A stretch of DNA of 64,000 bases, taken from a phage. A program made the translations under genes and the position numbers. Numbering within the stretch: the first letter of the stretch is position 1; every line of letters starts with the position of its first letter. A model generated the notes under the pieces. The model was not told where the DNA came from, did no database searches, and saw nothing but the letters and a program-made list of their open reading frames with translations. Of the stretch, positions 17,755 through 46,953 are shown one piece after another. The DNA lies in the NCBI GenBank assembly GCA_011911785.1, contig GCA_011911785.1_4084.1. The stretch is one strand, 5' to 3'.

Positions 17755-18096
17755 ATGAAAACTAATATTCAACTTAAGGTTTATAAATCATTTGCAAGTA
17801 CATATATCAAATGCAGTCTATGTAAAGATGTAATGGACTACAAAGGTAAGCCATTCACGATTACTTACGATTCTACAAGAGGTTTTTATATATCTTTTGC
17901 TGATTACAAATATAACATGTACGAACACATTGACATTAAAGATTTAAGTACTTTATCTGAAGAAGAATACTTTCAAGAATCATTAGTATGGGATTTAGAG
18001 TTTCCTATGCCATTGGTACATAAGATGATAGTACTAATAAAAGAAACTAAACAGGAGCCTAATAGTGCTTATGAAGAACACATTATTGAGTACTGA
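17755..18096 (+). CDS. FQxS-motif family protein (113 aa)
   Basis: motif EEEYFQESLVWD. Confidence 0.65.
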   Translation: MKTNIQLKVYKSFASTYIKCSLCKDVMDYKGKPFTITYDSTRGFYISFADYKYNMYEHIDIKDLSTLSEEEYFQESLVWDLEFPMPLVHKMIVLIKETKQEPNSAYEEHIIEY

Positions 18097-18099
18097 ACC

Positions 18100-18330
18100 A
18101 TGAAAAGATTATCATTCGAAGAGTACTGCAAGCTTATTAATACTTTACAACCACAAATAAAACAAATAAATTCTCTTCCTATATCCCAAGAAGAACGTGC
18201 AGTACTGAAAGATGAGTTAATTTTAAAATGCACAGTAGGTACTAACTATCAAGCTGATAGTGTTCGTTATCTAATTTGGGGTTTAATGTGCATAATAGAG
18301 AACAAAGCAGTTGACAGTACTCTAATGTAG
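18100..18330 (+). CDS. LGTNYQ-family small protein (76 aa)
   Basis: motif TVGTNYQADS. Confidence 0.6.
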   Translation: MKRLSFEEYCKLINTLQPQIKQINSLPISQEERAVLKDELILKCTVGTNYQADSVRYLIWGLMCIIENKAVDSTLM

Positions 18331-18378
18331 TGCTATAGTACTTGTACTTTTCGAGCGTTCTAATAGAGGGTACAGATT

Positions 18379-18624
18379 ATGTTAAAATTTTTAAATTTTC
18401 TTATCGTCTTGTGTATTGTTCTTGGGATTGCACCGTTTGTATTAGCGTATCTGGATTCAGATGAAATGCACAAGATGAATTGCACAAAGACAGGACAGAG
18501 TAGAAAAGAGACGGTTATGATGCCCGTAACGGTTATTGTGAATAACATGCCGATTACAAACATGGTCCCTACCCTAACGACAACGTACCAGTACTCTTGC
18601 GATGACGGAGAGAGATGGAGATGA
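18379..18624 (+). CDS. hypothetical membrane protein (81 aa)
   Basis: N-terminal hydrophobic helix FLNFLIVLCIVLGIAPFVLAYL; RBS AGAGGG. Confidence 0.45.
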   Translation: MLKFLNFLIVLCIVLGIAPFVLAYLDSDEMHKMNCTKTGQSRKETVMMPVTVIVNNMPITNMVPTLTTTYQYSCDDGERWR

Positions 18625-18958
18625 TGCGATAATGCGTAAGATCAATTGTATAAAAAGAGCGAATACATGTTTCATTGCGTTGACCAATGTACCGGGTGGG
18701 TCTGGTGTTAAGATATTTGAGTACAATAAAGTTGATAATTGTTTCTATTGGGTAGAAGGTATCAAATCATATGAAAATACGATAGCAGTACCGAATCTAG
18801 TTGATATCTCTGAAGAAGAAGAGTTTCAGTACATGTTAGTACACGATGATTCTTTTGGGTTGACATACAAAGAGATGAAGGAAGTACAAAGGCAGATGAT
18901 ATCATGTATGAATATTTCTAAGCATTTCCTTCAAAATATTCATCCAATTTACGTATAA
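18602..18958 (+). CDS. FQxS-motif family protein (118 aa)
   Basis: motif EEEEFQYMLVHD. Confidence 0.6.
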   Translation: MTERDGDDAIMRKINCIKRANTCFIALTNVPGGSGVKIFEYNKVDNCFYWVEGIKSYENTIAVPNLVDISEEEEFQYMLVHDDSFGLTYKEMKEVQRQMISCMNISKHFLQNIHPIYV

Positions 18959-18967
18959 GAGATTAAT

Positions 18968-19303
18968 ATGAAATTCAACATTCATAGAATTAATTCCGGT
19001 TGTATATTTGCTTATACGCATGAGAATTACAAGAAGTACATGAATCATGAAGTACATTATGTTTTTGAGGACGGTAAAGAATATTTTGCTTATTTGAGTC
19101 CCAGGAGTTTAGGTAAGTACGAGTTGCTTCAGGATCTTTCTCTTATGCAGGAAGATGAATTATTTCAGTACAGTCTAATTCATGACCCTTATATGTTTGA
19201 TATAGATATTATGTGCAGTTTACAGAAGAGGATGAAAGAAGTTTGGGATTCGATTAAAAGAGGTGATTGTATAGAATATGATAGTATACAAGAAGATGCC
19301 TAA
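18968..19303 (+). CDS. FQxS-motif family protein (111 aa)
   Basis: motif EDELFQYSLIHD. Confidence 0.65.
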   Translation: MKFNIHRINSGCIFAYTHENYKKYMNHEVHYVFEDGKEYFAYLSPRSLGKYELLQDLSLMQEDELFQYSLIHDPYMFDIDIMCSLQKRMKEVWDSIKRGDCIEYDSIQEDA

Positions 19304-19496
19304 CGGATATGAATTGAAGTACAGACAGTTTATTCGAAATGTAGATTCAGATCCTTTTAATGTTAAAATGGCAGAGTTTGATTTATTATTTTATCTAGGA
19401 ACGAGAGCACAGCCACAATTCGTTGATGCATACATAAGGGCTTTACGAACAGAGATAGTATGCACACCAAAGGAGTCTAAATGTACAAAAATGTAA
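19278..19496 (+). CDS. LGTNYQ-family small protein (72 aa)
   Basis: motif YLGTRAQPQF. Confidence 0.55.
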   Translation: MIVYKKMPNGYELKYRQFIRNVDSDPFNVKMAEFDLLFYLGTRAQPQFVDAYIRALRTEIVCTPKESKCTKM

Positions 19497-19738
19497 ACCA
19501 TCATTTGTACGCATCGAAGTACAGGGATTTTTGTTTACAAGGGGGCGATGAAGATTTTGCTCTGCGATTATCGGAATTTAATATGTTATTTTATCTTGGT
19601 ACATCAGTACAAGAAGAAATGGTACAGAAATTTATCAAGCACCTTGAGCGAAAAATTCATACGCAAATTTTGGTTGTTAAGTTACAGAATGAGATAAATG
19701 AATACAATGCAGAATCTAACAATAGTACAGGATCTTAG
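19481..19738 (+). CDS. LGTNYQ-family small protein (85 aa)
   Basis: motif YLGTSVQEEM. Confidence 0.55.
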   Translation: MYKNVNHHLYASKYRDFCLQGGDEDFALRLSEFNMLFYLGTSVQEEMVQKFIKHLERKIHTQILVVKLQNEINEYNAESNNSTGS

Positions 19739-20099: not shown

Positions 20100-20275
20100 T
20101 GATAGATACAAAGACATTAAATGCATTACAGGATTCATTATTAGATAGTATTAAGCTGTATTACAATATGCATTTGAGGGGTGGTATCAATGATTACAAT
20201 TATTATTTGAGTGTAATTATATTTGAGCATCTTTCAGTACAGGATAGAATTTTACACAAGTACAAACATTATTGA
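20087..20275 (+). CDS. hypothetical protein (62 aa)
   Basis: ORF coupled to neighbours. Confidence 0.4.
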   Translation: MGKMMIDTKTLNALQDSLLDSIKLYYNMHLRGGINDYNYYLSVIIFEHLSVQDRILHKYKHY

Positions 20276-20286
20276 GGAAACAAAAT

Positions 20287-20646
20287 ATGTTCAATAAAAT
20301 CATGTTCATTTTAACATTTGTGTTTTTATCATTCACAAACACCGCTCATGCAGCACAGGCAGTACAGGCATCATCGGATGTACCGTTATATGAAACATAC
20401 AAATTTGATTGCAGATTACAGAATAATGAAATAATCAATATCTTTTTACACAATACAGAAGTACCTTATTTGCAGATTGAAGCAACGAAGTACATGTATT
20501 ATGGTACGAATTCGGTACAGGAATTTTTATTTAAACACACAGAACAGGATGTAATTATATCATTGCAGTACGTTGATAGTTCATTGTCTTTAATGCATTT
20601 CAAGAATGCAGAGGGATTAGTTACAGTGCTCAAATGCTATAGGTAA
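20287..20646 (+). CDS. predicted secreted protein with Sec-type signal peptide (119 aa)
   Basis: N-terminus MFNKIMFILTFVFLSFTNTAHA-AQA; RBS GAGGAAA; contains YYGTNSVQEF segment. Confidence 0.55.
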   Translation: MFNKIMFILTFVFLSFTNTAHAAQAVQASSDVPLYETYKFDCRLQNNEIINIFLHNTEVPYLQIEATKYMYYGTNSVQEFLFKHTEQDVIISLQYVDSSLSLMHFKNAEGLVTVLKCYR

Positions 20647-20652: not shown

Positions 20653-21168
20653 ATGAATGAAATTGAATTATTAACGCACAAGATTAGTACAATAATGCTT
20701 ATGCTCAAAAATAATCATCCTATACATAAGTACATTGATATAGATGAATTACGCATAGAAGATAGGCATGGTAAATTATCGTTTATGTTTCACAATGCAA
20801 ATAATGCAGGGAATGTTAACGTTTGTTTTGCAGCATTTACCCAAGCCAATCCAGTACAAACATCTCCTGTTGTATACGAAAATAAAGAAGGGTATTTGTG
20901 GGTAAACACAAACGATTATTTCTTTTATGATTTGAAACAAGATGATGAAGTAGAAGAACGAATTGATTTAATTGATATTAGTACAGATTGTAGTGCTGAA
21001 TTATTTCAGAAATCGTTATTATATAGTCCTCGTCAAATGCATTATCTAAAGTTATTCAGTTCATTGTACGCGAATCCTTTAATTAAGGGTTTTAAATTTT
21101 ATATAAAAGTTCCTGACATTCAAGCAGTTTATGATATTTTGATGCAAGGATATAGTTATGAAGTATAG
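20653..21168 (+). CDS. FQxS-motif family protein (171 aa)
   Basis: motif AELFQKSLLYS. Confidence 0.65.
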   Translation: MNEIELLTHKISTIMLMLKNNHPIHKYIDIDELRIEDRHGKLSFMFHNANNAGNVNVCFAAFTQANPVQTSPVVYENKEGYLWVNTNDYFFYDLKQDDEVEERIDLIDISTDCSAELFQKSLLYSPRQMHYLKLFSSLYANPLIKGFKFYIKVPDIQAVYDILMQGYSYEV

Positions 21169-21466
21169 AATGCTCTATACCAAAGATATGATTTATGTTG
21201 AATTAGAAGGCGATGAAGACGGTTGGAATTTGATTTATTCATGTAGTTCAGGTTGGTACATGGCACATTTAAATGATAACGAAGTCACAGATTATTTTGT
21301 AGATTTCAATACATTATCCGACGAAGAATTGTTTCAACAGCAATTAGTGATTGACACAGGTGGATATGATGTGTTATTATTAAAAAAGATACAGAAAGCT
21401 GTTATGAATTTTAATGCACATGTATCCGAATGGGAAAGGAAATATTATGACCTCGAAGTACAATAA
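21158..21466 (+). CDS. FQxS-motif family protein (102 aa)
   Basis: motif DEELFQQQLVID. Confidence 0.65.
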   Translation: MKYRMLYTKDMIYVELEGDEDGWNLIYSCSSGWYMAHLNDNEVTDYFVDFNTLSDEELFQQQLVIDTGGYDVLLLKKIQKAVMNFNAHVSEWERKYYDLEVQ

Positions 21467-21815
21467 TACATTTGATATTAATAAGTTAACAGAATGGTTT
21501 TATAATATTGAAATTGAAGCTATTCCGTATCACAAGTACGAACAACGTGATTTACGTAGTATAGATATTCGTGAGTTGTACGAGTATTATCAGAGTGCAT
21601 TAGAGATGCATAAGATATTTTTGAGTACAGAATACATGACACGTTGTAAGGATGCGTTTGATGAATTCAAGAAGAATGATAATTTAGTACAGAAATATGT
21701 AATAGCAAAGTACATGTACCTTCAGGGAATTACAAGTACAGTGCAATTCAATACAGTTCTTGCTTTAGTTGAGATTATTTTATTATGCAAAAATGTAAAG
21801 TGGAATTTAGTTTAG
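21447..21815 (+). CDS. hypothetical protein (about 122 aa), divergent array member
   Basis: track ORF 21414; segment ELYEYYQSALEMH. Confidence 0.5.
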   Translation: MTSKYNNTFDINKLTEWFYNIEIEAIPYHKYEQRDLRSIDIRELYEYYQSALEMHKIFLSTEYMTRCKDAFDEFKKNDNLVQKYVIAKYMYLQGITSTVQFNTVLALVEIILLCKNVKWNLV

Positions 21816-22282
21816 AGAGTGCTGTGCAGTACGTTAAGTACATTGAAGGTGTATACAATATAATGAAAGCATATGAAGGAAAAGGATATGCTTCAATAAA
21901 TCACAAATATGATTATATTAACAATCAGTTAGAAGAATCAAATTCAGGTAAAGTGCTTTTTAGTTTTTTATATTTTGCTCCTGACAATGTATATCCTGAT
22001 GAAAATGATCTTCGTCTGGAAAGAGATGACCTTTGGTATATGTATCCAGGACGTGATAAGCCAATGGATGATGCTTTGTTGGAAATCAAATACAGTCCAG
22101 AACCCTTGACACCGGAGTTGTGGTTCCAGTACAGTACAATACATGAAGAAATTGATATCTTTTTCTACGCAATATACAAGATGCTTTATGAGAATGGTGT
22201 GCTTAAGAATCATGTATATTTTTATTTCCAGCAAATGAAAAATGTATATGAGTCCTTTTACCCAACCGAGCCTGTATCGTAA
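21785..22282 (+). CDS. FQxS-motif family protein (165 aa)
   Basis: motif ELWFQYSTIHEE. Confidence 0.65.
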   Translation: MQKCKVEFSLESAVQYVKYIEGVYNIMKAYEGKGYASINHKYDYINNQLEESNSGKVLFSFLYFAPDNVYPDENDLRLERDDLWYMYPGRDKPMDDALLEIKYSPEPLTPELWFQYSTIHEEIDIFFYAIYKMLYENGVLKNHVYFYFQQMKNVYESFYPTEPVS

Positions 22283-22308
22283 GATATGGGCTTTTTTTCG
22301 TTTTGGTA

Positions 22309-22338
22309 TTGACACAGTACAGAATCGGTGCTAATATA
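22309..22338 (+). promoter_or_regulatory. sigma70-like promoter (TTGACA-N18-TAATAT)
   Basis: TTGACA 22309-22314, TAATAT 22333-22338; preceded by a T-run. Confidence 0.5.
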
Positions 22339-22362
22339 CCTGAACATTTTTAAGGAGAACCC

Positions 22363-22897
22363 CATGCAAACATCGCAAAAATCGCAAGTACAGAAAGCAA
22401 TGTCATTCAATGAAATTGGTGCATTTAAAGATAAGATTATTGATTGTATTGAATACGCGATTTGTAGTAATATCAAAAGTATAGAGGTATTTAACAAGTC
22501 AAATCGCTCTTACCATATGATGTACATTGCAAACAATAATGGTATCATTCCATTTGTTTCGGATAGTACAATATGGTTCGCTTGCGATGTGAAAAAATAC
22601 ACAATAGGTTCATATGTCTTCGGTAAACATGGTGATCTAATTATTCCTGAGCATTGTATGCAAGAAGAAGAATATTTTCAAAAGCAATGTGTACATGAAC
22701 CATTAGAGATGGTTGCTTTATATATGATACCTTATATCTCTAAATGTGTTCATGAGAATAAAGCTCCGTGGAATCATGAATTTGTATCGTTGAAGTTATT
22801 GTATAATGTTTTAGTACAATATTATGATTACAGACACGAGGGTACAATCAGCGATGTATGGGATTTCGAAAATTTAAGGGTAAAAACATATGAATAA
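22363..22897 (+). CDS. FQxS-motif family protein (178 aa)
   Basis: track ORF 22328 trimmed to ATG after RBS AAGGAGA; motif EEEYFQKQCVHE. Confidence 0.65.
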
Positions 22898-23528
22898 TTT
22901 TCCAAGAAATGCTTCACCGTATGAGGTGATGAAGTTCATGGAGCCTCATGTTCCTTATATGTTTGAAATGCTAAAGAAGTTCAATGCTATTTTCCCTGAG
23001 AATTCAAAATTGGAGATTCCATTTGATTCCGCATCCAGATACAGTGCATCCTGTGGTAAATTAGTTTTAGTTATCGGTAGTGACAGAATAGGTTTCAGGG
23101 AAGTATTTGACACGTCATTAGCATTTGGTATATTCGATAACAACAATAACATCACATACATTGACAAGTACATTTGCGACATAGCAGGTTCCTCTAAGCC
23201 GGATTCCTTTGTGGATTCAGTTGCAGATTATGGTGTTTCAAAAGATGGTAATGTAATAAGTACAAAGACGTTCATATCATTATCGTTAGAAGATGACATA
23301 TGTTACATTGCAGGGCAAGAGTACGAGGGTGTAGAGGAAGTGCTTTTTCAAATGTCCTTAGTACAGAAGGATATGGTGGACCCTACCGAAATCCTGAAGT
23401 TGTGCAAATATGCGAATGAGTACAAGAAATTGATTGAACCTGGGTTTAGTTTCAGTGCACAGAGTCCGCATTTTCAGATAAAAGTATATGAAGATTTCAT
23501 TTTGAAGTTAAAAGAGATTGTGTTATAA
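22890..23528 (+). CDS. FQxS-motif family protein (212 aa)
   Basis: motif EEVLFQMSLVQKD. Confidence 0.65.
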   Translation: MNNFPRNASPYEVMKFMEPHVPYMFEMLKKFNAIFPENSKLEIPFDSASRYSASCGKLVLVIGSDRIGFREVFDTSLAFGIFDNNNNITYIDKYICDIAGSSKPDSFVDSVADYGVSKDGNVISTKTFISLSLEDDICYIAGQEYEGVEEVLFQMSLVQKDMVDPTEILKLCKYANEYKKLIEPGFSFSAQSPHFQIKVYEDFILKLKEIVL

Positions 23529-23580
23529 TACGCAATAACATGCAATAACACACAATACAACAAAGACGGGAGTGATTTAG

Positions 23581-24117
23581 ATGATCCAGCACAAACATTT
23601 TGAGTACGAGTTCGCTGACAATTTAGTAAAAATCGTACAGGCGTTTGAGGCTGGGGATTTTGACCACATCTATCCTAAGCACAAGGAAGGATGGCTTGAG
23701 CCTAAGAGCGATATTGAAAAGTATCCATCTATTGTGTATTACAGGAGAGATACGGTAATGCACGCTGTAGGTGAGAAGATGCAGTTAGAGTATTGTCTTT
23801 TGTTCAATGCTATTACATCGGCTACATCAGCATCTGAAGAGTTCGCTCCAGTGAATTGGATTCGTTATTTGGATATGAGCAAGAGAGAGGAAGAAACCTT
23901 TTTTGGTTTAACAAAGCACGTTGATATTGCAACCTTGAATCCTAACATCCTGAGTCCTGAAGAATATTTTCAGGAGTCCTTAGTACAAGATCCTTATATT
24001 TTACAGGTGCAGCAAGTATATAATGTATTACGTGCTAATGTGAAAACGAATTTCTTTTTAGCTTTAACGTGGTACGATAGGTTAGTAAAAGATCTCAAAG
24101 AGATTAAGGGGGAGTAA
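23581..24117 (+). CDS. FQxS-motif family protein (178 aa)
   Basis: motif PEEYFQESLVQD; RBS GGGAG. Confidence 0.65.
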   Translation: MIQHKHFEYEFADNLVKIVQAFEAGDFDHIYPKHKEGWLEPKSDIEKYPSIVYYRRDTVMHAVGEKMQLEYCLLFNAITSATSASEEFAPVNWIRYLDMSKREEETFFGLTKHVDIATLNPNILSPEEYFQESLVQDPYILQVQQVYNVLRANVKTNFFLALTWYDRLVKDLKEIKGE

Positions 24118-24683
24118 TGCTGGACCTTCAGGACATAGAAAGTACATGCAAAGCGATAGAAGATGATTTAGAATACATCAAGGGGTTGTATTTAATTGTA
24201 GATAGGATTTACAAAAATCCGAATGCGTTTCAGGAAACGTACCAGCATGATAAATTTCGACACGAACCAATCATTACGCTTATGTCGGATTTATCGATTT
24301 ACGAAAGAAAATCCAACAAATCACATAGTGTATTATTTGTGAGTACAGATAGATTTTACAGTACAACATCAATTTGTTCAGATGTATCATGTGCATGGTT
24401 CAGTTCAAATGAATATATAACAGTTAAAAATAATGGCGAAAATGAGAAATTAAAAGTAAGTGAGCTTATTGATTTGATGCCATATAGTCCTGATGTAGTG
24501 TTTCAGTACAGTACATTGCACGATTATAATTCAATACGATATCGTTATTTTGTTAAGCATTATTATGATACCTTCGGGGAGTTAACGGAGAAGTTAACGT
24601 TGAGATTTGACCGTGATATTGATCTCGTTGCAATGCTTCAGTACATACAGTACGTGTTTGATAAGGACGCGGAAAAGGGGTAA
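24117..24683 (+). CDS. FQxS-motif family protein (188 aa)
   Basis: motif DVVFQYSTLHD; TAATG overlap. Confidence 0.65.
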   Translation: MLDLQDIESTCKAIEDDLEYIKGLYLIVDRIYKNPNAFQETYQHDKFRHEPIITLMSDLSIYERKSNKSHSVLFVSTDRFYSTTSICSDVSCAWFSSNEYITVKNNGENEKLKVSELIDLMPYSPDVVFQYSTLHDYNSIRYRYFVKHYYDTFGELTEKLTLRFDRDIDLVAMLQYIQYVFDKDAEKG

Positions 24684-24895: not shown

Positions 24896-25252
24896 ATGAG
24901 CAATGATTTTGCTATTCACAGTTTTTTCTACAAAAAGGTTGAGTTCTATTGTAATCTCGTTAAGGGTGATACCAATCATTCGTTGGACCAATATATTAAG
25001 TACACCTCAAATGGATTTTCTTTTATTGATTACGGTCGAGTGGGTGGTGGTGTTAATGAACCTATGCTGGACTATACAGAAATGGATGAGGCTACACTAT
25101 TTCAGGAATCATTAGTGTTCGATAAGAAATATATTTGTACACTAGATGAAGTTATTGGTATTCAGAATATCATGAAAGAACACTCTGCGAAGTGCATGAT
25201 AGAATTAACTCAAGATAAGCACAAGACTGTTCAGTACCATTTCAATCTTTAG
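24896..25252 (+). CDS. FQxS-motif family protein (118 aa)
   Basis: motif EATLFQESLVFD; RBS AGAGG. Confidence 0.65.
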   Translation: MSNDFAIHSFFYKKVEFYCNLVKGDTNHSLDQYIKYTSNGFSFIDYGRVGGGVNEPMLDYTEMDEATLFQESLVFDKKYICTLDEVIGIQNIMKEHSAKCMIELTQDKHKTVQYHFNL

Positions 25253-25263: not shown

Positions 25264-25608
25264 ATGACATACAATGAATACCGTGAAATAGATCTTCTCC
25301 AGAATACATTATATGAAATTGAAGATTTAATGCACGGATGGACAAGTCTTTCTTTCTTTAATGAAATGTTCGAAGAAATAAAAGTAGTACTACAGAAAAA
25401 ACATAATGGTACTAAAATTAAAATAAAGACTTTCACTGGAGAAGTCTGGTGCGGAGAAATTGTGAAATACATTATAACTCGCAATAACGCATCATTCTGT
25501 TTGAATACTGGTCATTACAGAAATCATTTCAACAATAGCAGTACTCAAGTTATTTCCGAGGAAGAATACAATGAGCACTGTAATAAACTTCTTAAGAGTA
25601 GATTCTAA
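25264..25608 (+). CDS. hypothetical protein (114 aa)
   Basis: ORF in array without the FQ motif. Confidence 0.5.
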   Translation: MTYNEYREIDLLQNTLYEIEDLMHGWTSLSFFNEMFEEIKVVLQKKHNGTKIKIKTFTGEVWCGEIVKYIITRNNASFCLNTGHYRNHFNNSSTQVISEEEYNEHCNKLLKSRF

Positions 25609-27940: not shown

Positions 27941-27950
27941 GTTCATGCTA

Positions 27951-27978: not shown

Positions 27979-28012
27979 GCACAGTAATATTAATTCAAAA
28001 GGTGCACATTAA

Positions 28013-36572: not shown

Positions 36573-36581
36573 GTTTATAGG

Positions 36582-36610: not shown

Positions 36611-36641
36611 ATTGTAACCTATTTAAAAGAGAGCGTATTTT

Positions 36642-38599: not shown

Positions 38600-38605
38600 T
38601 TTTAA

Positions 38606-38644
38606 AGCCAGGGTATTGACTCTGGCTTTTTTCTTTGCTATTAT
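38606..38644 (+). promoter_or_regulatory. intrinsic terminator fused to sigma70 promoter (TTGACT-N17-TATTAT)
   Basis: stem AGCCAG/CTGGCT with TTGACT in the loop, then a T-run that serves as spacer to TATTAT. Confidence 0.6.
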
Positions 38645-38672
38645 TTTAATATTATTTAACCGAGGATATCAT

Positions 38673-39227: not shown

Positions 39228-39783
39228 TATTTTTAAAGTACTAGAAGAACTTACTCATAAGTTAGATGAACAAAAAAGAACTGAGAATATTTTTCATTAC
39301 TTCAACAATCCAATGTACCGATTAGTTTTTGATTGCAGTACTTTGTATCGTTATGCTAATATCCAAATACAACACTGCATTCAACATAAAACCAAAAATA
39401 TATGGTCAGTTGATGCTTCTTATGTGGCATCAGGCAGAGAGAGTAAATTTTTGGGTTCAGTTTCTGATTGTAGTCTTACTGTGAATAAACTCAAAGAAAC
39501 TAACGAATTAATCGTCAGAAATTTGTACGATGATTATTATGATGATGAAGAATATCTTCATATTGCACCTGAGCTACAAAATCCAGAAGAGCGAGAAGCA
39601 TATCTTTTCCAGTTGTCGTTGCTCCCAGGTTATGATATGATAGCTAAAGCTGATTTTGTATATCAACTATCAATGCAACTTGGTAGTGGGGAGTGTTCTG
39701 CTTTCAATAATCTATACAATGAAAGTACTGAAACACAAGAAGAATTATTGGAGGAATTAAATGCCTTTCTCAAATCTTTATAA
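39211..39783 (+). CDS. FQxS-motif family protein (190 aa)
   Basis: motif EAYLFQLSLLPGYD. Confidence 0.65.
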   Translation: MKTLIDIFKVLEELTHKLDEQKRTENIFHYFNNPMYRLVFDCSTLYRYANIQIQHCIQHKTKNIWSVDASYVASGRESKFLGSVSDCSLTVNKLKETNELIVRNLYDDYYDDEEYLHIAPELQNPEEREAYLFQLSLLPGYDMIAKADFVYQLSMQLGSGECSAFNNLYNESTETQEELLEELNAFLKSL

Positions 39784-40339
39784 TTACATGTCCGAAGAGT
39801 ATCAATATTACACTAAGATGGTTTTGAAAGTGAATGCTATTCTTAATAGTGATTTATGTAAAACTAAAAAGACATTTAATCTCCCATATATGCGTTTGAC
39901 GATTACTAAAGACCAGGAAGGTATGTATGATCATGCAGTAGTTTCGATGAATGATCTACGTGTCTTTCTGATAATTAAGTACAATAAAGAAGATTTAACC
40001 AACAACGATGGGTACATTAACTACGATTATATTATTGGAGGAAATGCTGAAGTTCCAGGGACAAGTGAATTTGCAGGGATTGTTATTTCAGGTAAAAAAA
40101 TTCCAAAGATTAATCTTAACAGTAGTACTATAGAAGAAGAACTATTCCAGTTAAGTACTATGTACAGTACTAACGAATTGGATTTATTACTTTTCAGTAC
40201 AATCGTCAATCATGAACTGGATAAGAAAGACAAATACTGTCCATTACAACAAATTGTTCATCGTTTTAAACGTAGTGAATTTAAAAGAATTCATGAAGGT
40301 CTGGACAGTCTTATCAACAATACTGGGGAGTTCTCATGA
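39761..40339 (+). CDS. FQxS-motif family protein (192 aa)
   Basis: motif EEELFQLSTMYS. Confidence 0.65.
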   Translation: MPFSNLYNYMSEEYQYYTKMVLKVNAILNSDLCKTKKTFNLPYMRLTITKDQEGMYDHAVVSMNDLRVFLIIKYNKEDLTNNDGYINYDYIIGGNAEVPGTSEFAGIVISGKKIPKINLNSSTIEEELFQLSTMYSTNELDLLLFSTIVNHELDKKDKYCPLQQIVHRFKRSEFKRIHEGLDSLINNTGEFS

Positions 40340-40896
40340 AATATAGTCTTTACAGTAGAGGAAAGTTTCTTGAGAAGTTCATTGAAGATTGTGTAGCTGC
40401 ACTGAGTTTAATTCGTGAAGGTGAATACATTAAAGTCAATCACACTGTACTAAGAGATCTTAATTTTTTTCTGAGTGGTGATTTGAATAATGATATGCAC
40501 TTCACAATAACGTACAACCACAAAGATATCATTGAAATCAATACACAACAACGACACATAAAAGAATACACCCGATTACGCAATACCAAGACAAAGCGTG
40601 TAGTAATTAAAAAAGGTGATGTAGAGTTGATGTGTAAAGATAGTACTGCAATAGATATCAGTACTTACTTCGATAATGAAGAAGATATGGATTGTGATTG
40701 CTTCCAGAAGAGTTTAATTATTGATGATCCGTATGTACTGTACGGTGCAGTACTGGCTCCGTTCTGTCAGAAGAACTTACCAGATGGATGTACGGTTGAA
40801 TTGAACTTGACAGAACTCATGAATGATGATATATTTGAGTACATGAGTACTAACTCCAAGGCAATGATTGAACATATTAAGGCAATCCAATGTTAA
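40336..40896 (+). CDS. FQxS-motif family protein (186 aa)
   Basis: motif DCDCFQKSLIID. Confidence 0.65.
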   Translation: MKYSLYSRGKFLEKFIEDCVAALSLIREGEYIKVNHTVLRDLNFFLSGDLNNDMHFTITYNHKDIIEINTQQRHIKEYTRLRNTKTKRVVIKKGDVELMCKDSTAIDISTYFDNEEDMDCDCFQKSLIIDDPYVLYGAVLAPFCQKNLPDGCTVELNLTELMNDDIFEYMSTNSKAMIEHIKAIQC

Positions 40897-41375
40897 ATCC
40901 AGAAGACGTTATTAAATTTTGTAAAATTCTTGTGAAGTATTCTCATAAATTTGTGCACGAAGTACAGATAATGATTGATGGTATTCCATTTAACTTCGTG
41001 AAAAACAACGACATTATATCTGTGTTCTGTGGCTCATGGACATTTTGTGAACTCAACTGTCAAGAATCTCAAAATGTTATTGTGAAACGAAACATGATCC
41101 TATCAAGGGAAAGTTCAGTATTCATTGAACCAAGTGGTGAAATCATATACGAGAAAAAGAACGGCGACAGAACTTTAGATGATTTTATGGCTGAATTGAG
41201 CCTTGATAATGAGTTTCATAGAAATGCAGTACTGATACATAGTGCTATGGTGCATGAAACTAATTTAAATTCTATATCAATTAATTTCGGTGTTTATTCT
41301 TATTACAAATTTACATTTGATATGATATTTCAAACACTTAACAAACATCCTATATTCTGGAAATGCAATGAATAA
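40890..41375 (+). CDS. hypothetical protein (161 aa), divergent array member
   Basis: ORF coupled to neighbours; motif degenerate. Confidence 0.5.
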   Translation: MLNPEDVIKFCKILVKYSHKFVHEVQIMIDGIPFNFVKNNDIISVFCGSWTFCELNCQESQNVIVKRNMILSRESSVFIEPSGEIIYEKKNGDRTLDDFMAELSLDNEFHRNAVLIHSAMVHETNLNSISINFGVYSYYKFTFDMIFQTLNKHPIFWKCNE

Positions 41376-41826
41376 AGACGATTACGAATTACTGAAAAAG
41401 TTAATCCAGTACTGCCTCAATGAACTGGATAATGGTAAAGCTCGAAAATCAGGTTCATGGTTTGATGTAAGCTATCCATCAGACGGCGATGATATGATGA
41501 CATTATGGTCAAATGAAAGATACATTGATTATAGTGTAATGGATAATACTACTATAGATTATGTCAATGACAATGTATGGTATTTCAATACACAGTTAAT
41601 CATTGATATTAAAAGTATAGATTTAAGTACTGAGATTGATGAAGCAACCATATTTCAATTAAGTACTTTGTATTCTGATGAAGTGATATATCCGTTATTA
41701 CTTCTCCTACAGTTGAGAGCCATTGCAGCGGAACGTGGTTTCACATCCATATCATTTGCTCATGACATTGATGTACGAAGAGCAGAAATTACAAAATTAG
41801 TTGAGGGATATGATGGAACACTTTAG
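41368..41826 (+). CDS. FQxS-motif family protein (152 aa)
   Basis: motif EATIFQLSTLYS. Confidence 0.65.
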   Translation: MNKDDYELLKKLIQYCLNELDNGKARKSGSWFDVSYPSDGDDMMTLWSNERYIDYSVMDNTTIDYVNDNVWYFNTQLIIDIKSIDLSTEIDEATIFQLSTLYSDEVIYPLLLLLQLRAIAAERGFTSISFAHDIDVRRAEITKLVEGYDGTL

Positions 41827-42304
41827 TACTAAAGACTTTGTGGAATTGCATAAAATTCTTGAAGAAAAATATATCAATGAACAATATGGTCGATTCGAAC
41901 TGGCTCCAGATATTATTCTTAAAATACAAAAAGATGGTATGATCCGAGTTGTATTTGAGCAGAAAAGAGGTTTAGACCATGACATTTTCATGCTCTTTGA
42001 TAGCAATAGTCCTATCTATGATGCACCAAGCTTCGATACAAGCACCATTGGTTCACAATCCGCAGTCTTTCATCCAGGAACTACTGTTGTAAAAATCGAT
42101 GGTGTAGATTGCAACATGCGACCTGTATCATTGGATGAAATTGATGAAGTTGAATTTCAGAACAGTACTGTGAATAATTATAGTGCAATGTTCACCTACA
42201 TGTGCTATCTTAACAGTACTTGTTGCAAATTTCTTATGTACACATCGTATGTAAATGAAGATGAAGTACTACACTATGTATTGAAAAAACTAAGAGAATT
42301 ATGA
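41801..42304 (+). CDS. FQxS-motif family protein (167 aa)
   Basis: motif DEVEFQNSTVNN. Confidence 0.65.
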   Translation: MRDMMEHFSTKDFVELHKILEEKYINEQYGRFELAPDIILKIQKDGMIRVVFEQKRGLDHDIFMLFDSNSPIYDAPSFDTSTIGSQSAVFHPGTTVVKIDGVDCNMRPVSLDEIDEVEFQNSTVNNYSAMFTYMCYLNSTCCKFLMYTSYVNEDEVLHYVLKKLREL

Positions 42305-42305: not shown

Positions 42306-42908
42306 ATGATCATTGACATGCCTATTCTTAATAAAATGCTTAACCCTGTCATTACGTTAGCTAAAAGTATTTCTAATAATGAAAAGTTGCATCTCCCATA
42401 CTCTATGTTAACGTATGCAACTGATTTTTACAGGATTGAAATCTCGGCATGTGAACAACGAATTACACTAGCATTCAAACGCCTTGGTGCTGGACTTGCA
42501 AATGATTTTGATATTTCACTGATACTTCATGGTGAATTAGAAGATAGTAAAATTCTGTCCTATGAAAGAATTCTTCGCAGTACAAATGAAATAAAATTAT
42601 TCAAAACATTTTCACATTATAATGGTTCTGATGTTTCATATTATTTTGATAAGGATTCATTTAAGAATATCAAAAGTGTTGAAGTGAAAGATTTCAGCGA
42701 AGAATGGTATTTTCAAAATACATTAATTCATTCTTTACCTTCATATGAAGAAATGAAGATGAACATTGATCTTTATGAAAAATTAAAATCAGAACTGAAA
42801 TGTAATTTTCTATTATCAATGAACTACAAAAAGATCAGTACTGATGTGGTATTGGAAGATGAACTAATGAAACGAATTTGGTCTGCTATACCAGTTATTA
42901 AGGAATAA
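42306..42908 (+). CDS. FQxS-motif family protein (200 aa)
   Basis: motif EEWYFQNTLIHS. Confidence 0.65.
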   Translation: MIIDMPILNKMLNPVITLAKSISNNEKLHLPYSMLTYATDFYRIEISACEQRITLAFKRLGAGLANDFDISLILHGELEDSKILSYERILRSTNEIKLFKTFSHYNGSDVSYYFDKDSFKNIKSVEVKDFSEEWYFQNTLIHSLPSYEEMKMNIDLYEKLKSELKCNFLLSMNYKKISTDVVLEDELMKRIWSAIPVIKE

Positions 42909-42910: not shown

Positions 42911-43450
42911 ATGCACATTGCAACATTATCAAATACTAAAGAATTTGAGCTATGGCCTGAGAAAGTTAACAGCTTAAGACAGCGTTATGTGAATTTCTGC
43001 CGTGGTATCAGGAAAGCCAGTAGAATGTCACATTCACTAAGCATGTCAATTGATGGTTGTGTTATGAATGCAGATAAGAACCGTTTGTACGTTGAATCAT
43101 ACAGTTCGCAAGCTCTGTACATTATGCTTCATGCTGGTACACAAATCCCACAGAATTCGATTGGTTGTTATTCAATTACATGGTCTGGACGAAAGTCTAC
43201 TAAATTATATCCGTGCAAAAGAAACGACCAATCGTTCAGTGTTGATATTAATTACTGTGAGTACACTGAAGAAGAACACTTTCAGCACAGTACTCTTCAT
43301 GATATCATTGAGTACAATGAATGCATCAATGTACTGGATAAATGTTATGATTTAGAACATAATACTGGTATCGTTGTAGTTAATAATTGCTTTTTTGATA
43401 GTGATGTACTTGATACATTAGATTATTTTTTAGAGGGTTACAATGACTAA
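42911..43450 (+). CDS. FQxS-motif family protein (179 aa)
   Basis: motif EEEHFQHSTLHD. Confidence 0.65.
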   Translation: MHIATLSNTKEFELWPEKVNSLRQRYVNFCRGIRKASRMSHSLSMSIDGCVMNADKNRLYVESYSSQALYIMLHAGTQIPQNSIGCYSITWSGRKSTKLYPCKRNDQSFSVDINYCEYTEEEHFQHSTLHDIIEYNECINVLDKCYDLEHNTGIVVVNNCFFDSDVLDTLDYFLEGYND

Positions 43451-44060
43451 CATTAGAACAGAGTATGTTAAGTACGAGAAAGCACTACGTGATTTACTAA
43501 ACATTGCACCGGATTTAATTAGAGCTAAACAAACACTATTTGACAAGTACGGTCCGAAAAGTGAACTCAAGCTATCAAAAAAGGGAAAACCCACACAATA
43601 TACAACGCTGTATAATAGATATAGCGTTGGGATTTGTAATATCTATACAGATGAATTAGTACTGGAATTAACCCAAGACGATGATGAAGAAGCACATGAT
43701 TTATTTCCTGAATTTGAAGAGTGCATGTTTAGTCCAGGTAATCCAGTGTTTTTAACCTTAAATGATGGAAGAAAAACGCTAAAAGAATCGTTCATCACAT
43801 ATGATGCCAAAACTAAAACACTAATGGATATTGAATCTGGGTATAAGACTGATCTGAAATCACTTGAAGATTGTAAGGGTGCATTGTTTCAGATGGGTGT
43901 AATCACAGAGGTTACCACTACACCAGAAGAATTATGGCTTATGGTTTCAGTACTGAATGATTGGTACAAAGTGAAGAGTCTACGAAATATGTTCATTTAT
44001 ATCAAGCCTGATTGCATCAAGAAAGAAACACTAATTAACAATATGGTAATACCTGAATGA
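43443..44060 (+). CDS. FQxS-motif family protein (205 aa)
   Basis: motif KGALFQMGVITE. Confidence 0.6.
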   Translation: MTNIRTEYVKYEKALRDLLNIAPDLIRAKQTLFDKYGPKSELKLSKKGKPTQYTTLYNRYSVGICNIYTDELVLELTQDDDEEAHDLFPEFEECMFSPGNPVFLTLNDGRKTLKESFITYDAKTKTLMDIESGYKTDLKSLEDCKGALFQMGVITEVTTTPEELWLMVSVLNDWYKVKSLRNMFIYIKPDCIKKETLINNMVIPE

Positions 44061-44656
44061 AAAAAGATCCAAATGAAGACTTAATCAATTCTTTAAGTAC
44101 TATCAAAGATTTGTGGTTACGATATCGTGGATTGTATAGTGTTAAAGATACAGAAAATAACATACTCCAAAGTCTTAAAATCACGATTCGAATGCAATTC
44201 AAAAATGGAATGGCAGTTGATGTTGAGATGAACAAAACTGGAGTTTATGTATATGATGGTTCTCGAACTGCAATCTTTATGGCAGAATTCATAGATGAAG
44301 ACTGTAATCTATATTGTTCATACGACATTGAAAGTGGTGATATCGAAATGTTCGCTAATGAACCTATCCTGCTCCGTTTCACTAAATCATGGAATGAAGA
44401 TTACATTATATATCAAAATGGAGGCTTCTTAAATTCCGATGAGGAACCCATCGATAACATAGAAGAAATGGCATTCCAGAGTAGTACTGTTAATGATGAT
44501 GCATTATCTTATCAAGAAATCCTTGACACAGTGAATGGTTATGATAAGATACAGGCTGCAATGAAAGAGAACGGTATCTGTTACCTTACAGTACTGGACA
44601 AACTCTTCTACGATGAACTGTGTTCGTACCTGAACTGTATTCTCACTGAGGATTGA
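44057..44656 (+). CDS. FQxS-motif family protein (199 aa)
   Basis: motif EEMAFQSSTVND. Confidence 0.65.
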   Translation: MKKDPNEDLINSLSTIKDLWLRYRGLYSVKDTENNILQSLKITIRMQFKNGMAVDVEMNKTGVYVYDGSRTAIFMAEFIDEDCNLYCSYDIESGDIEMFANEPILLRFTKSWNEDYIIYQNGGFLNSDEEPIDNIEEMAFQSSTVNDDALSYQEILDTVNGYDKIQAAMKENGICYLTVLDKLFYDELCSYLNCILTED

Positions 44657-45072
44657 TGATGATTCTATACCATGCAAGTACTGTTAAAATTGACAACTTC
44701 TACATTCCTTATGGTGGTTTACATATGGGAGGGAAGCATAGTGCTCTTGAGGCTGCGTTACGCAAGCTGAGAAGCCCACTGAACGTTGTTGATGCTGACA
44801 CGGTGTACTTGCATACCTTAGAAGTTGACGTTGATAACGTGCTTCTGTGTGAGGATATGGGTAGTGATGACGAATGGCGATCACTTATTGAGTATTGTGA
44901 TACTGAAGGTTACGATGCAGTTCAGTACAAGAATGAATACGAGCCGGACAATGTTCCTAGTTATATGATTTGGGATACATCTAAAGTTCGTATTGTTGAA
45001 GTTGATGCTATGCATATGGATGAAGCTGAAATGATTATCGAAGATTTTCTTGATGAATATGAAGGTGTATAA
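44653..45072 (+). CDS. hypothetical protein (139 aa)
   Basis: ORF in array without the FQ motif. Confidence 0.5.
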   Translation: MMMILYHASTVKIDNFYIPYGGLHMGGKHSALEAALRKLRSPLNVVDADTVYLHTLEVDVDNVLLCEDMGSDDEWRSLIEYCDTEGYDAVQYKNEYEPDNVPSYMIWDTSKVRIVEVDAMHMDEAEMIIEDFLDEYEGV

Positions 45073-45596
45073 TGACTGATTCAATGACAGTACTGGTACG
45101 TACTAAGTTACTATTGAAGATTGGTGAGATTTTCACAGATCTTATGCACAATCAAATTGATATTACAGAACTAGATATTAAGCAACCGTGGGAAATTACA
45201 AGGTTCTCGGCGTTCCACCGATTGTCATATAAAGGTGAAACTGTTCTTGATTTTAATCACAAAGCAAAATTCATGGATTATGCCGCGTTGTACCGAAATA
45301 ATTATTCAGGTTGTATAACCAATAACTTCAAAGGAATAAAAGTACAGATTGAATCAATTGAATTTAACGAATTACTATATCCAGAATTTAAGTTAACTGA
45401 AGAATCTATGTTTCAGTACTCACTAATTCTAAAAGATCTAGAAACTCTAGAGTACTACAGAGAGTTAGTAGATATTTTTATGAATGTTCGTCTTTCAAAA
45501 GATATTGTGATATTCTGGTATACAGAGCGTATTACAGAGGAAGTACTTGAAGAATTTCTCGTAAATATGACAGCTATTAAGGAGAATTTATGTTAG
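45072..45596 (+). CDS. FQxS-motif family protein (174 aa)
   Basis: motif EESMFQYSLILKD. Confidence 0.65.
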   Translation: MTDSMTVLVRTKLLLKIGEIFTDLMHNQIDITELDIKQPWEITRFSAFHRLSYKGETVLDFNHKAKFMDYAALYRNNYSGCITNNFKGIKVQIESIEFNELLYPEFKLTEESMFQYSLILKDLETLEYYRELVDIFMNVRLSKDIVIFWYTERITEEVLEEFLVNMTAIKENLC

Positions 45597-46054
45597 ACAT
45601 TTTAGGAAACATTGATACGGTAAACTTTTTTATTCAAGACGCAATTATCAATATCACATCAAAGCCAATCCAAGTTAGAAGTAACTTTTATAGTGGGGAT
45701 GGTTATATGGTTGATATTGTTGAAGTTAAGAAAAATGTTTTCCAAATCAATATTCTCACACAAACGAGAACACAGATTTCTCGTATCATCATCAATAAAG
45801 ATGAAGCCGTCATTCGTTATAATTCAAAATTCATGATGTTCTTTAAAAAGAAAACTGGTATGTTCAGTACTAATCTCTTTGATGAATCATTTTATTCAAC
45901 CGATGTGGAATCTACCTTCTTCACACAAAGTACATTTATCAAATTTGATAGTATTGAGTTCGATTCAAATATCATGTCAGAAACATTACAATGCCTAAAG
46001 GTATTACATAATGAATTTACCAACTTTATCGATAGCCGAAACAAGATTAACTAA
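45590..46054 (+). CDS. divergent FQxS-family-like protein (154 aa)
   Basis: degenerate motif ESTFFTQSTFIKFD. Confidence 0.55.
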   Translation: MLDILGNIDTVNFFIQDAIINITSKPIQVRSNFYSGDGYMVDIVEVKKNVFQINILTQTRTQISRIIINKDEAVIRYNSKFMMFFKKKTGMFSTNLFDESFYSTDVESTFFTQSTFIKFDSIEFDSNIMSETLQCLKVLHNEFTNFIDSRNKIN

Positions 46055-46469
46055 TATAAATGAATTAGTTAATGCTATCTTATCATGCAAATTAAAAATT
46101 GATACCAAATGTAAGTACAATGGTATTAATTTATACAAATTAAAATATTCACGAATACATAATTCAGTAAAATACATTTACGGTACTAGTCAAATCATCT
46201 TTGAAACGGTTACAGTGAACAGTAAATTACTTATTGATGTTTATATCAGTAATAAGATTAAAAATTCACAAAAAGTGTTGACAGTTTCTTCTGATAATGT
46301 TACTATGTTTGATACCAACAATAAGAAGTTAGATATTGATTTAGATGTTATTCTTGATGGTGACTTATTCCAGTACGAGTGTATTGGTCTAAATAATCCA
46401 TTTGATAAATCAGTACTAGTCAATTTAATCAAACATATTAAGGGTATTTTAGATGAAACTAACAACTGA
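46011..46469 (+). CDS. FQxS-motif family protein (152 aa)
   Basis: motif DGDLFQYECIGLN. Confidence 0.6.
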   Translation: MNLPTLSIAETRLTNINELVNAILSCKLKIDTKCKYNGINLYKLKYSRIHNSVKYIYGTSQIIFETVTVNSKLLIDVYISNKIKNSQKVLTVSSDNVTMFDTNNKKLDIDLDVILDGDLFQYECIGLNNPFDKSVLVNLIKHIKGILDETNN

Positions 46470-46953
46470 TATGAAACTTTGCATTTCTTTGATTATGCGT
46501 TCATTCGATGACAAAAGGACAAGTAAAGTTACTATCACCAATGACCATTTACAATGCAGTACACTCAATAGTACTGTAGTTTTCGGATTACATAGCCTCC
46601 GTTTGACGATAGTAAATAATATTGACAATACGGCGATGTGTATTACCCCCTGCCACGTTCAGGATGAACATGGTGTTTATCTTCACCACATGGGGACTTC
46701 GTATTTCATTTTCAATGAAGAAAAGGGAGTACAAAAAGACTTTAACACGTTGTGCGTAGACGGCGGTGAATTGTTCCAGATGGGAACTTTATATCAGTGT
46801 GATTTTACTGATACATCTGAAGTACTTCCATTATTTCTTGATCTCATTAAGAATTTAGGTTCATTTACTGGTCGCTATAACAAATCATTAAAGGCACAGG
46901 CAATTCAAAATATCTCGGAAGCAATAGAATATTACGAAAACGCTGTGTCGTAA
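46453..46953 (+). CDS. FQxS-motif family protein (166 aa)
   Basis: motif GGELFQMGTLYQ. Confidence 0.6.
   Translation: MKLTTDMKLCISLIMRSFDDKRTSKVTITNDHLQCSTLNSTVVFGLHSLRLTIVNNIDNTAMCITPCHVQDEHGVYLHHMGTSYFIFNEEKGVQKDFNTLCVDGGELFQMGTLYQCDFTDTSEVLPLFLDLIKNLGSFTGRYNKSLKAQAIQNISEAIEYYENAVS

Follow-up and report, generated by a model that had tools for sequence, protein, structure and literature searches.

The FQ array and its motif

The window, that is, the whole 64-kilobase (kb) stretch of phage DNA analysed here, contains between positions 17755 and 46953 a tandem array of small genes, most of which encode members of one uncharacterised protein family. It is called the FQ family below, after the Phe-Gln pair in its short conserved motif. 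The DNA comes from a jumbo coliphage of the genus Asteriusvirus (the 121Q/PBECO4 group), and the closest record is phage A4: positions 17755-40000 are 98% identical to Escherichia phage A4 by megablast, and the window proteins, compared gene by gene, are about 95-100% identical to those of A4 along the entire window. About 30 further Escherichia and Salmonella jumbo phages match 17755-40000 at 83-88%, covering just one fifth of the query. The entire 64 kb consists of small open reading frames (ORFs) on the plus strand, with a G+C content of 30-39%, and all array features described below lie on that strand. At about 30 kb the array makes up roughly 8% of a 350-kb phage genome, and in public records nearly all of its genes are labelled “hypothetical protein.”

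About 100% of the array is coding, in 63 non-nested plus-strand ORFs. Forty-five of these carry, in register, the motif [ST]-E-E-x-[LY]-F-Q-x-S-[LT]-[VIL]-[YHWF]-[DN], with F-Q placed 33-88 residues from the C-terminus, and the members range from 102 to 220 amino acids (aa) in length. In an alignment of 32 long members the mean column identity is 15% and the only invariant columns are the F and the Q, as the first-pass annotation of this DNA had proposed when it called the FQ invariant. Counting from the motif Gln (present in 46 of 46 sequences), Ser occupies position 3 in 37 of them and Thr occupies position 4 in 19, and an aromatic residue is found at position 6. The residue directly after the Gln is Tyr in 10 members, Leu in 8, Glu or Met in 6 each, Gln or Asn in 5 each and Lys in 3, with Ser or Gly in 2 of 46, and Tyr precedes the Phe (position -1) in 12 of 46.

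The motif is far more frequent than composition would predict. FQ dipeptides number 58 in the array region against 18 expected by composition, and 18 against 15 outside it. A loose version of the pattern, FQ-x-[STG..]-[LTCV..]-[VIL..], is matched by 47 of the 74 ORFs listed for the array, compared with a mean of 1.1 (maximum 5) across 200 composition-preserving shuffles, and these shuffles rule out the motif as a compositional artefact. Elsewhere the loose pattern is matched by 1 of 87 minus-strand ORFs and by 4 of 105 plus-strand ORFs outside the array, namely 57973-58551, 58548-59237, 47630-48466 and 49660-50499. Two hidden Markov models (HMMs) were used, an external one trained only on members from phage 121Q and Klebsiella phage RaK2 and one trained on the window. 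The external HMM finds 39 window ORFs at an expectation value (E) <1e-3 and 6 more at E<1e-2, against a best decoy (shuffled or minus-strand) at E=0.049. When two ORFs of 278 and 279 aa and two outlying members, all downstream, are added to the 45 of the array, the total comes to about 49 where chance would give about 1, so the “about 50” paralogs with a shared motif of the first-pass annotation is a fair figure. It had also placed two further members at 57973-59237; the motif is present in both, but the HMM support for them is weak (E 4e-3 and 9e-4).

Conservation of the motif is at the protein level, since it is written with mixed codons (Phe, Gln and Glu each appear with their two codons, and Ser comes from the AGY and TCN boxes) and paralogues share only short runs of identical consecutive bases around it, with a median of 6 nucleotides (nt). 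A repeat at the DNA level, such as a recombination site or an RNA element, is ruled out by the same mixed synonymous codons and 6-nt median run. Across 47 members, the Phe and Glu codons of the motif track general usage.

The genes are as tightly packed as had been claimed: most junctions abut or overlap, and only seven gaps in the whole array exceed 40 nt, leaving about 8 tightly packed transcription blocks. Overlaps are found at 42 of the 62 junctions, a count that is overstated because the first in-frame start codon was taken as the start of each gene. The picture of about 30 kb filled head to tail by the family is right as to the tandem, same-strand and nearly fully coding arrangement, but about 18 non-members are interspersed (small genes of the LGTNYQ family described below, a chemotaxis-like gene at 37187-38599 and others).

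The array had been thought to use very few promoters, and this agrees with strong sigma-70-like sites in six of the seven gaps, with 10-12 of 12 consensus bases and an extended -10 TG. The best of these is a perfect consensus, TTGACA-17-TATAAT with TG, at 31510-31538 (gap 31513-31570). Sites that match 11 of 12 bases and have the TG are found at 18311-18339 (gap 18330-18379), at 27951-27978 (gap 27940-28013) and at 36582-36610 (gap 36559-36642), the last preceded by a terminator-like hairpin at 36548-36569 so that the two span 36548-36610. Matches of 10 of 12 with the TG lie at 22309-22337 (gap 22282-22328), just past a terminator-like hairpin at 22268-22293, and at 23502-23529, before the gap 23528-23581. 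Another site with 10 of 12, at 38616-38644, overlaps a terminator-like hairpin after the chemotaxis-like gene, together spanning 38604-38644. That the strongest plus-strand sites fall in the rare gaps supports transcription by the host polymerase in a handful of long operons of early genes, and it is only this placement that would make such promoter-like sites telling.

Predicted fold, distribution and divergence

The FQ proteins are acidic, with a median isoelectric point of 4.8 and a median net charge of -9. The earlier view that their motif belongs to no characterised domain holds: none of 10 members scanned against Pfam scored above the gathering score (best E 0.009), and a 32-member profile run against PDB sequences gave a best match of E 0.03, a spurious one to an acetylcholine receptor. 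In PHROGs, 9 of 10 members match (E 1e-9 to 8e-124), and all of the matched families, at least eight (phrog_9317, 12674, 28680, 13866, 34600, 22855, 29816 and 37163), are of “unknown function.” The FQ proteins are already catalogued but uncharacterised, and they are split in that catalogue, where their unity through the F-Q motif and the fold is not recorded. Around the motif, hhalign links the short (about 110 aa) and long subfamilies with a probability of 94%.

AlphaFold2, run for the long type on the 32-member alignment, predicts a single confident domain for the member at 26106-26588, with a predicted local distance difference test score (pLDDT) of 84 and a predicted template modelling score (pTM) of 0.78. 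The model runs from an N-terminal helix through seven strands, two short helices at residues 97-101 and 107-114, a 15-residue helix and a strand to terminal helices, and helix 107-114 is the motif (EEYYFQQS), in a block with a pLDDT of 96. An AlphaFold model of the short type at 30636-30974 (pLDDT 77, pTM 0.72, motif pLDDT 88-93) consists of five strands followed by the motif helix, a long helix and one last strand, which is the core of the long type in the same element order, without the N-terminal helix.

A confident AlphaFold model has no significant structural match among solved structures. Foldseek against the predicted viral structures of BFVD matches only uncharacterised proteins at 12-18% identity (E down to 5e-5), from 121Q, RaK2, GAP32, Serratia phage BF and Yersinia phage fHe-Yen9-03. 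Since the BFVD models were made independently, the full-length predicted fold is common to these proteins, and these predicted matches point to the family in further RaK2-like phages. There is also a likeness to the MAM33/p32 (gC1qBP) fold: both are very acidic, both have an antiparallel sheet flanked by helices, and the long type has the same order of one N-terminal helix, about seven strands and C-terminal helices. MAM33/p32 has no sequence-profile match to the FQ family, however, and the resemblance is a lead, not an assignment.

The first-pass annotation described a conserved module, followed by a tail of 40-60 aa, on a diversified N-terminus. This architecture has to be given up, as the flanks are equally variable on both sides and only the motif of about 13 residues is conserved. 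In 30 diverged orthologue pairs with 121Q, the motif is 57% identical, compared with 26-36% for the N-terminal part and 31-38% for the tail. When the motif and 8 residues on either side of it are removed, HMMs built on half of the members find 0-1 of 18 held-out N- or C-terminal parts in two-fold cross-validation, which rules out an N-terminal part or a tail that is conserved by itself. The models place the motif, as a high-confidence helix, within a single globular domain and not in an appended tag or linker, and its acidic residues fit what we take to be a helix N-cap pattern (Ser/Thr, then Glu-Glu). By geometry, E(-3) and Q(+1) would share one face of the motif helix, whereas residues -2 and +2 vary. 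A few lineages that persist have Met or Asn in place of the Gln (36642 in the window; cluster P0103), and this tolerance fits a packing role better than a catalytic one. We infer a structural role for the F-Q pair.

A HMMER scan of 1.84 billion representative proteins returns 172 clusters, all of them standalone proteins of 90-212 aa without fused domains, apart from one match of 4098 aa judged spurious. The FQ is in register in 163 of the 166 homologues fetched, one having F-M, and homologue-bearing contigs, where long, are about 350 kb. A word-indexed protein search finds close Asteriusvirus relatives only. In RaK2 (genus Alcyoneusvirus), about 35 members with the same motif lie at 245-276 kb, and the window and RaK2 keep largely the same order in their reciprocal best hits, with E 1e-5 to 1e-22 for family members and 1e-34 to 1e-70 for interspersed non-family genes. 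These collinear copies indicate that the expansion is older than the split of Asteriusvirus and Alcyoneusvirus and that individual copies have been kept in place. A scan of the more distant Pseudomonas phage PA5oct, for which RNA-seq exists, covered its first 50 kb (the repeat region) and turned up no member.

The family also diverges quickly. Among collinear reciprocal best hits with 121Q its median identity is 35%, with 23 of 37 pairs below 40%, compared with 79% for the other genes of the same stretch and 70% for the LGTNYQ family. In unsaturated pairs the ratio of nonsynonymous to synonymous divergence (dN/dS) is about 0.24-0.66 for the family and about 0.06-0.3 for most non-family neighbours; in the remaining family pairs dN is 0.6-0.9 and dS is saturated, so the gene-wide dN/dS is untrustworthy for most of the pairs with 121Q. 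Against A4, the corresponding ratio over these close differences (pN/pS) stands at 0.19 in the family, against 0.16 in other genes, indicating that the family genes are under purifying selection at present. Fast long-term change with ordinary short-term constraint fits episodic adaptive change or the exchange of old alleles and proves neither. Copy number differs as well: 121Q has about 42 members, and A4 has two more than the window, at A4 7287-7811 and 12027-12497 (motifs GEDEYFQYSTVHH and SEEFYFQQNTIYE). Two A4-only copies in a near-identical phage show recent copy gain or loss.

Mass spectrometry of the phAPEC6 virion identified 62 proteins, none of them from gp348 to gp548 (PMC7247149). 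The family member of this congeneric phage is gp442c, and the lack of any virion protein from gp348-gp548 indicates that the family is non-virion. Cargo sharing one targeting tag, an option raised by the first-pass annotation, is disfavoured for the same reason, as no gene of this region is among the 62 (PMC7247149).

Members and neighbouring genes

Expectation values for the members are those of the external HMM unless stated otherwise. The short subfamily opens the array at 17755-18096 (113 aa, SEEEYFQESLVWD, E 4.8e-14) and recurs at 18602-18958 (118 aa, SEEEEFQYMLVHD, E 5e-9), 18968-19303 (111 aa, QEDELFQYSLIHD, E 1e-10), 21158-21466 (102 aa, SDEELFQQQLVID, E 1.6e-7), 24896-25252 (118 aa, DEATLFQESLVFD, E 1e-12), 25608-25934 (108 aa, YESFIFQESLVWD, E 2e-5), 30268-30636 (122 aa, SEEEFFQESTVWD, E 6e-11), 30636-30974 (112 aa, SEEELFQESLVWE, E 9e-11; the AlphaFold-modelled one) and 32563-32901 (112 aa, SEEELFQMSTAFE, E 4e-6). 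A short type with a longer tail follows at 32901-33332 (143 aa, PPDELFQYSLVCP, E 5e-9).

Longer members begin at 20653-21168 (171 aa, CSAELFQKSLLYS, E 3e-15) and continue with 21785-22282 (165 aa, TPELWFQYSTIHE, E 8e-11), 22328-22897 (189 aa, QEEEYFQKQCVHE, E 1.4e-7), 22890-23528 (212 aa, VEEVLFQMSLVQK, E 2e-5), which has 23% identity to its positional orthologue in 121Q, 23581-24117 (178 aa, SPEEYFQESLVQD, E 1e-12) and 24117-24683 (188 aa, SPDVVFQYSTLHD, E 7e-7). The A4 counterpart of 23581-24117 (A4 9016-9552) is annotated “DNA ligase,” a label that looks like an annotation error, since it has no Pfam or PDB support. Next are the modelled long-type member at 26106-26588 (160 aa, SEEYYFQQSTVYN, E 4e-28), 26590-27033 (147 aa, TEEYYFQQSLIFN, E 9e-24), 27033-27488 (151 aa, SEEYYFQQSTVYT, E 9e-24), 27494-27940 (148 aa, NEEGYFQLSTVLN, E 8e-13), 28013-28546 (177 aa, FEEQMFQLSCTDD, E 5e-5) and 29177-29725 (182 aa, NEESVFQLSTLYN, E 1e-9). 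At 29622-30284 there is a probable member with STDVAFQQDLIMN 56 aa from the C-terminus; it qualifies by the motif in register only, is missed by both HMMs, and its true start probably lies further downstream.

Downstream of it stand 30977-31513 (178 aa, TEELFFQMSTVDD, E 2e-15), 31570-32076 (168 aa, DECEYFQYCTIYS, E 9e-18), 32076-32579 (167 aa, SEEDYFQLSTTMN, E 1e-13), 33320-33802 (160 aa, TEETHFQLSLIYT, E 2e-15), 33799-34269 (156 aa, NEEMYFQNSLLYT, E 7e-15), 34279-34785 (168 aa, TDENYFQNSLIYN, E 1e-14), 34760-35374 (204 aa, LDETLFQYSLIHN, E 6e-8), 35379-36011 (210 aa, SEEAFFQNSLIYE, E 2e-11), which has the best-conserved RaK2 orthologue (E 1e-22), and 36008-36559 (183 aa, DDGVLFQYSTLYD, E 4e-9). 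A degenerate relative at 36642-37190 (182 aa) has the motif Q changed to M, and its 121Q orthologue reads LMFNANLLYD.

The part of the array beyond the chemotaxis-like gene holds 38616-39227 (203 aa, LEEQNFQSSVTHD, E 7e-4), 39211-39783 (190 aa, REAYLFQLSLLPG, E 0.28 with the external HMM and 5e-16 with the window-trained one), 39761-40339 (192 aa, IEEELFQLSTMYS, E 1e-4), 40336-40896 (186 aa, MDCDCFQKSLIID, E 7e-3; window-trained E 3e-15), 41368-41826 (152 aa, DEATIFQLSTLYS, E 6e-10), 41801-42304 (167 aa, IDEVEFQNSTVNN, E 5e-4), 42306-42908 (200 aa, SEEWYFQNTLIHS, E 4e-8), 42911-43450 (179 aa, TEEEHFQHSTLHD, E 2e-9), 44057-44656 (199 aa, IEEMAFQSSTVND, E 2e-3; window-trained E 5e-15) and 45072-45596 (174 aa, TEESMFQYSLILK, E 1e-6). 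Probable members are 43443-44060 (205 aa, CKGALFQMGVITE, motif in register, window-trained E 0.002), 46011-46469 (152 aa, LDGDLFQYECIGL, E 6e-3) and 46453-46953 (166 aa, DGGELFQMGTLYQ, E 1e-3). A possible degenerate relative at 40890-41375 (161 aa) has a family-like N-terminal helix, VIKFCKILVKYS, and no in-register FQ, and is missed by the HMM.

Two larger proteins lie past the array. One, at 47630-48466 (278 aa), has an FQ-type motif, AAFQAELVLN, 50 aa from its C-terminus that is kept in 121Q and RaK2, and is possibly a distant member with a larger N-terminal part; the other, at 49660-50499 (279 aa), has PDELVFQFMLLG at residue 79, kept in RaK2, and is possibly a distant member with a long C-terminal extension. 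Both are missed by the HMM, and both are strongly diverged from 121Q (41% and 33% identity, respectively). The outlying probable members are 57973-58551 (192 aa, GLPEHFQMSTLFD, E 4e-3 against the best decoy at 0.049) and 58548-59237 (229 aa, TEEEHFQLMMMRA, E 9e-4).

A second tandem family of about 25 proteins of 65-87 aa, with an L-G-T-N-Y-Q-E motif (phrog_4148, unknown function), occupies 13178-17752 directly upstream and has copies inside the FQ array at 18100-18330, 19278-19496, 19481-19738, 28543-28770 and 28761-28967. Its median identity to 121Q orthologues is 70%, and RaK2 has a few copies. A relationship between the two families is ruled out (hhalign probability 0.1-0.2%).

The chemotaxis-like gene at 37187-38599 encodes 470 aa, with a multi-pass membrane N-terminus and a methyl-accepting chemotaxis signalling domain (PF00015, E 7e-37). 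The only phage record that has this gene is A4 (99%); 121Q lacks it at this position, and identity to enterobacterial chemoreceptors is just about 34%. Also inside the array, at 20272-20646, is an ORF of 124 aa with a TTG start and a signal-peptide-like N-terminus (…FVFLSFTNTAHAAQA); no counterpart was found in the 121Q region examined. Embedded at the array end are three slow-evolving non-family genes of unknown function, 44653-45072, 45590-46054 and 46994-47467. The first of them has 92% identity to its 121Q orthologue and a RaK2 match of E 1e-56, with no match in Pfam or PDB, and the second has a shifted motif, F-F-T-Q-S-T, that is conserved in the window, 121Q and RaK2.

Just downstream are a T4-type RNA ligase 1 (Pfam RNA_lig_T4_1 and T4_Rnl1_C) and a polynucleotide kinase-phosphatase, at 59499-60644 and 61718-62650. 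These two enzymes form a tRNA-repair pair that counters the PrrC anticodon nuclease (PMC7247149). The small-ORF block upstream of the array includes a GNAT acetyltransferase at 3025-3381 (Pfam E 6e-9). A 194-aa protein at 7440-8024 in the same block resembles protein kinases weakly (E 1e-3, under the gathering score), has 92% identity to its 121Q orthologue and is conserved in RaK2 too.

Possible role of the array

The reading that we prefer, which we hold tentatively and would not yet call probable, is that the array encodes early-expressed small acidic binding proteins that share one scaffold, whose keystone would be the motif, and that carry variable surfaces, each of which would target a different host protein. 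An ancient tandem expansion in RaK2-like jumbo phages would have given rise to small acidic cytoplasmic non-virion proteins with a common scaffold of an antiparallel beta-meander, the short motif helix, a longer helix and a final strand, to which members of 150-210 aa would add an N-terminal helix. The motif would form a helix, N-capped and with its Phe buried, that leads into a hydrophobic connector, and such a keystone role would explain why the motif alone survives drift elsewhere. Host RNA polymerase would transcribe the array early, from few strong sigma-70 promoters, as long packed operons. Each paralogue, with its own surface, would bind and neutralise a different host protein (a takeover target or a defence factor), and variation in the host would make phage lineages diverge fast. 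That the proteins act as inhibitors or against defences is what we infer. The arms-race arsenal suggested by the first-pass annotation survives in its evolutionary part, as the divergence (35% against 79%) and the differing copy number fit host-driven pressure and go together with early-type promoters and counter-defence neighbours, but not in its tag architecture.

Several observations weigh against this reading. No homology ties any member to a host target or to a defence system. The total number of sigma-70-like sites equals the shuffle expectation, and early timing would follow from consensus promoter matches only. Gene-wide dN/dS is below 1 and, with dS saturated for most pairs, positive selection is not demonstrated; weak constraint could give similar numbers. 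As for the motif, a polar Gln that stays invariant over more than 200 sequences with about 15% identity is odd for a residue whose role is purely structural, and this Gln is CAG in 32 of 47 members, compared with 39% CAG among the Gln codons of the window ORFs, a bias that hints at a special importance.

The main alternative, which we think unlikely, is that the motif is a docking site. The F-Q helix and the Q-x-S-[LT]-[VI]-aromatic stretch would then engage one common hub, such as the host or phage sliding clamp, RNA polymerase, a chaperone or a protease, while the variable remainder brings targets or activities, making the array an adaptor library. A near-absolute F-Q (209 of about 215 sequences) amid drift is what a shared interaction site typically looks like, E(-3) and Q(+1) would lie on one helix face with -2 and +2 variable, and the CAG bias of the motif Gln points the same way. 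Q-x-S-[LT]-[VI]-[YWF] also resembles bacterial clamp-binding peptides (e.g., QTSMAF and QLSLF), which is a lead only. However, the motif lies in a confidently folded internal helix, whereas linear docking motifs are usually found in a disordered tail; 19 of 46 members have Thr where the key hydrophobic residue would be; and lineages in which the Gln has become Met or Asn persist.

It is improbable that the array is weakly constrained filler, in which old tandem duplications took up unused room in the capsid (the “ratchet” of Hua et al. 2017) and then drifted near-neutrally with little individual function. A dN of 0.6-0.9 against 121Q, the loss of cross-detectable similarity once the motif is masked and the differing copy number among relatives are what such drift would give. 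Yet the pN/pS of 0.19 against A4 is the same as the neighbours' 0.16, every reading frame is intact, positional orthologues have been kept from Asteriusvirus to Alcyoneusvirus, F-Q is invariant and strong promoters stand ahead of the genes.

Very little speaks for a processing site like that of tobacco etch virus (TEV), ENLYFQ/(S,G), at which a Gln-specific protease would cut to release the tail of about 50 aa or mature the proteins. Some members do resemble E-x-x-Y-x-Q (e.g., DENYFQNS, EEYYFQQS and SEEYYFQQS), and Tyr is at -1 in 12 of 46. The FQ motif differs from the TEV site in having an extra variable residue between Gln and Ser, and the residue after the Gln is variable and bulky, being Ser or Gly in 2 of 46; the motif is in a structured helix and not in an exposed linker, and the family proteins are not in virions. 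To our knowledge there is no Gln-specific protease in these phages; the sole protease reported in the proteome of this group is a T4-type prohead protease, an enzyme that cleaves after Glu. The resemblance to the TEV site is most likely coincidental. Equally hard to credit is that the proteins are packaged cargo, carried in the capsid and then ejected into the host, with the motif directing them to the capsid in the manner of the T4 internal proteins, because although the capsids of 121Q and phAPEC6 hold an inner body whose components are incompletely assigned (PMC5646251, PMC7247149), 0 of the 62 phAPEC6 virion proteins map to gp348-gp548, the motif is internal and folded and not an N-terminal cleavable signal, and head proteins would not be expected behind early-type promoters.

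No description of the FQ motif, fold, distribution or evolutionary behaviour turned up in literature searches, only general remarks on paralogues. A tandem array in 121Q was mentioned in 2017 in a single sentence that leaves out motif, fold, distribution and evolution (PMC5646251); the remark may refer to the FQ array or to the adjacent LGTNYQ array, and it speaks of “very similar” genes, whereas FQ members have about 15% identity. About 10% of the proteins of RaK2 are paralogues (PMC3622015). In Bacillus phage G, a zinc-ribbon expansion of about 35 copies was called “unprecedented” by Iyer et al. (PMC7824862); it is likewise a tandem duplication inside a jumbo phage genome, and the FQ array, with about 45 copies, is larger. 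The “hyperplastic regions” of T4 and the long-terminal-repeat early genes of PA5oct (PMC7318152) are also long one-strand runs of small uncharacterised ORFs, transcribed by the host polymerase, variable among relatives and containing host-takeover and counter-defence genes. Those early blocks are mixtures of unrelated genes, whereas the FQ array is dominated by one family.

In kind, the array comes closest to such early blocks and to tandem multigene families of large eukaryotic DNA viruses, namely the MGF360/505 families of African swine fever virus and the Bcl-2-like and ankyrin families of poxviruses. These viral families too consist of tens of tandem same-strand paralogues, with extreme divergence on a shared fold and copy numbers that differ between strains, and they encode early non-structural proteins in the variable accessory part of a very large genome. 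The FQ phages, however, infect a bacterium, and the FQ family has an unrelated fold; for the eukaryotic-virus families immune evasion or host range is an established role, for the FQ array a conjectured one. That the array is the phage counterpart of these immune-evasion families, with about 45 inhibitors on an unseen scaffold, each tuned to a different host defence or factor around a Phe-Gln helix as structural or docking core, is possible but rather doubtful. If true, it would mean dozens of undiscovered anti-defence or host-takeover proteins in one region, together with a new protein fold.

Whatever the function, many separate “unknown” phage families are unified into one, with a predicted fold unmatched among solved structures, and the invariant Phe-Gln pair offers a simple mutational handle for separating a structural role from a docking role. 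This one uncharacterised family holds about 30 kb and is conserved as an array in at least two RaK2-like genera, and it combines three features that mark host-interface genes in other viruses: massive tandem expansion, long positional retention and divergence far faster than that of the neighbours. If its members inhibit host factors, each genome would provide about 45 candidates, and the genomes together hundreds, for new anti-defence mechanisms and for the defences they target, which would also help to explain the large size of these phages.

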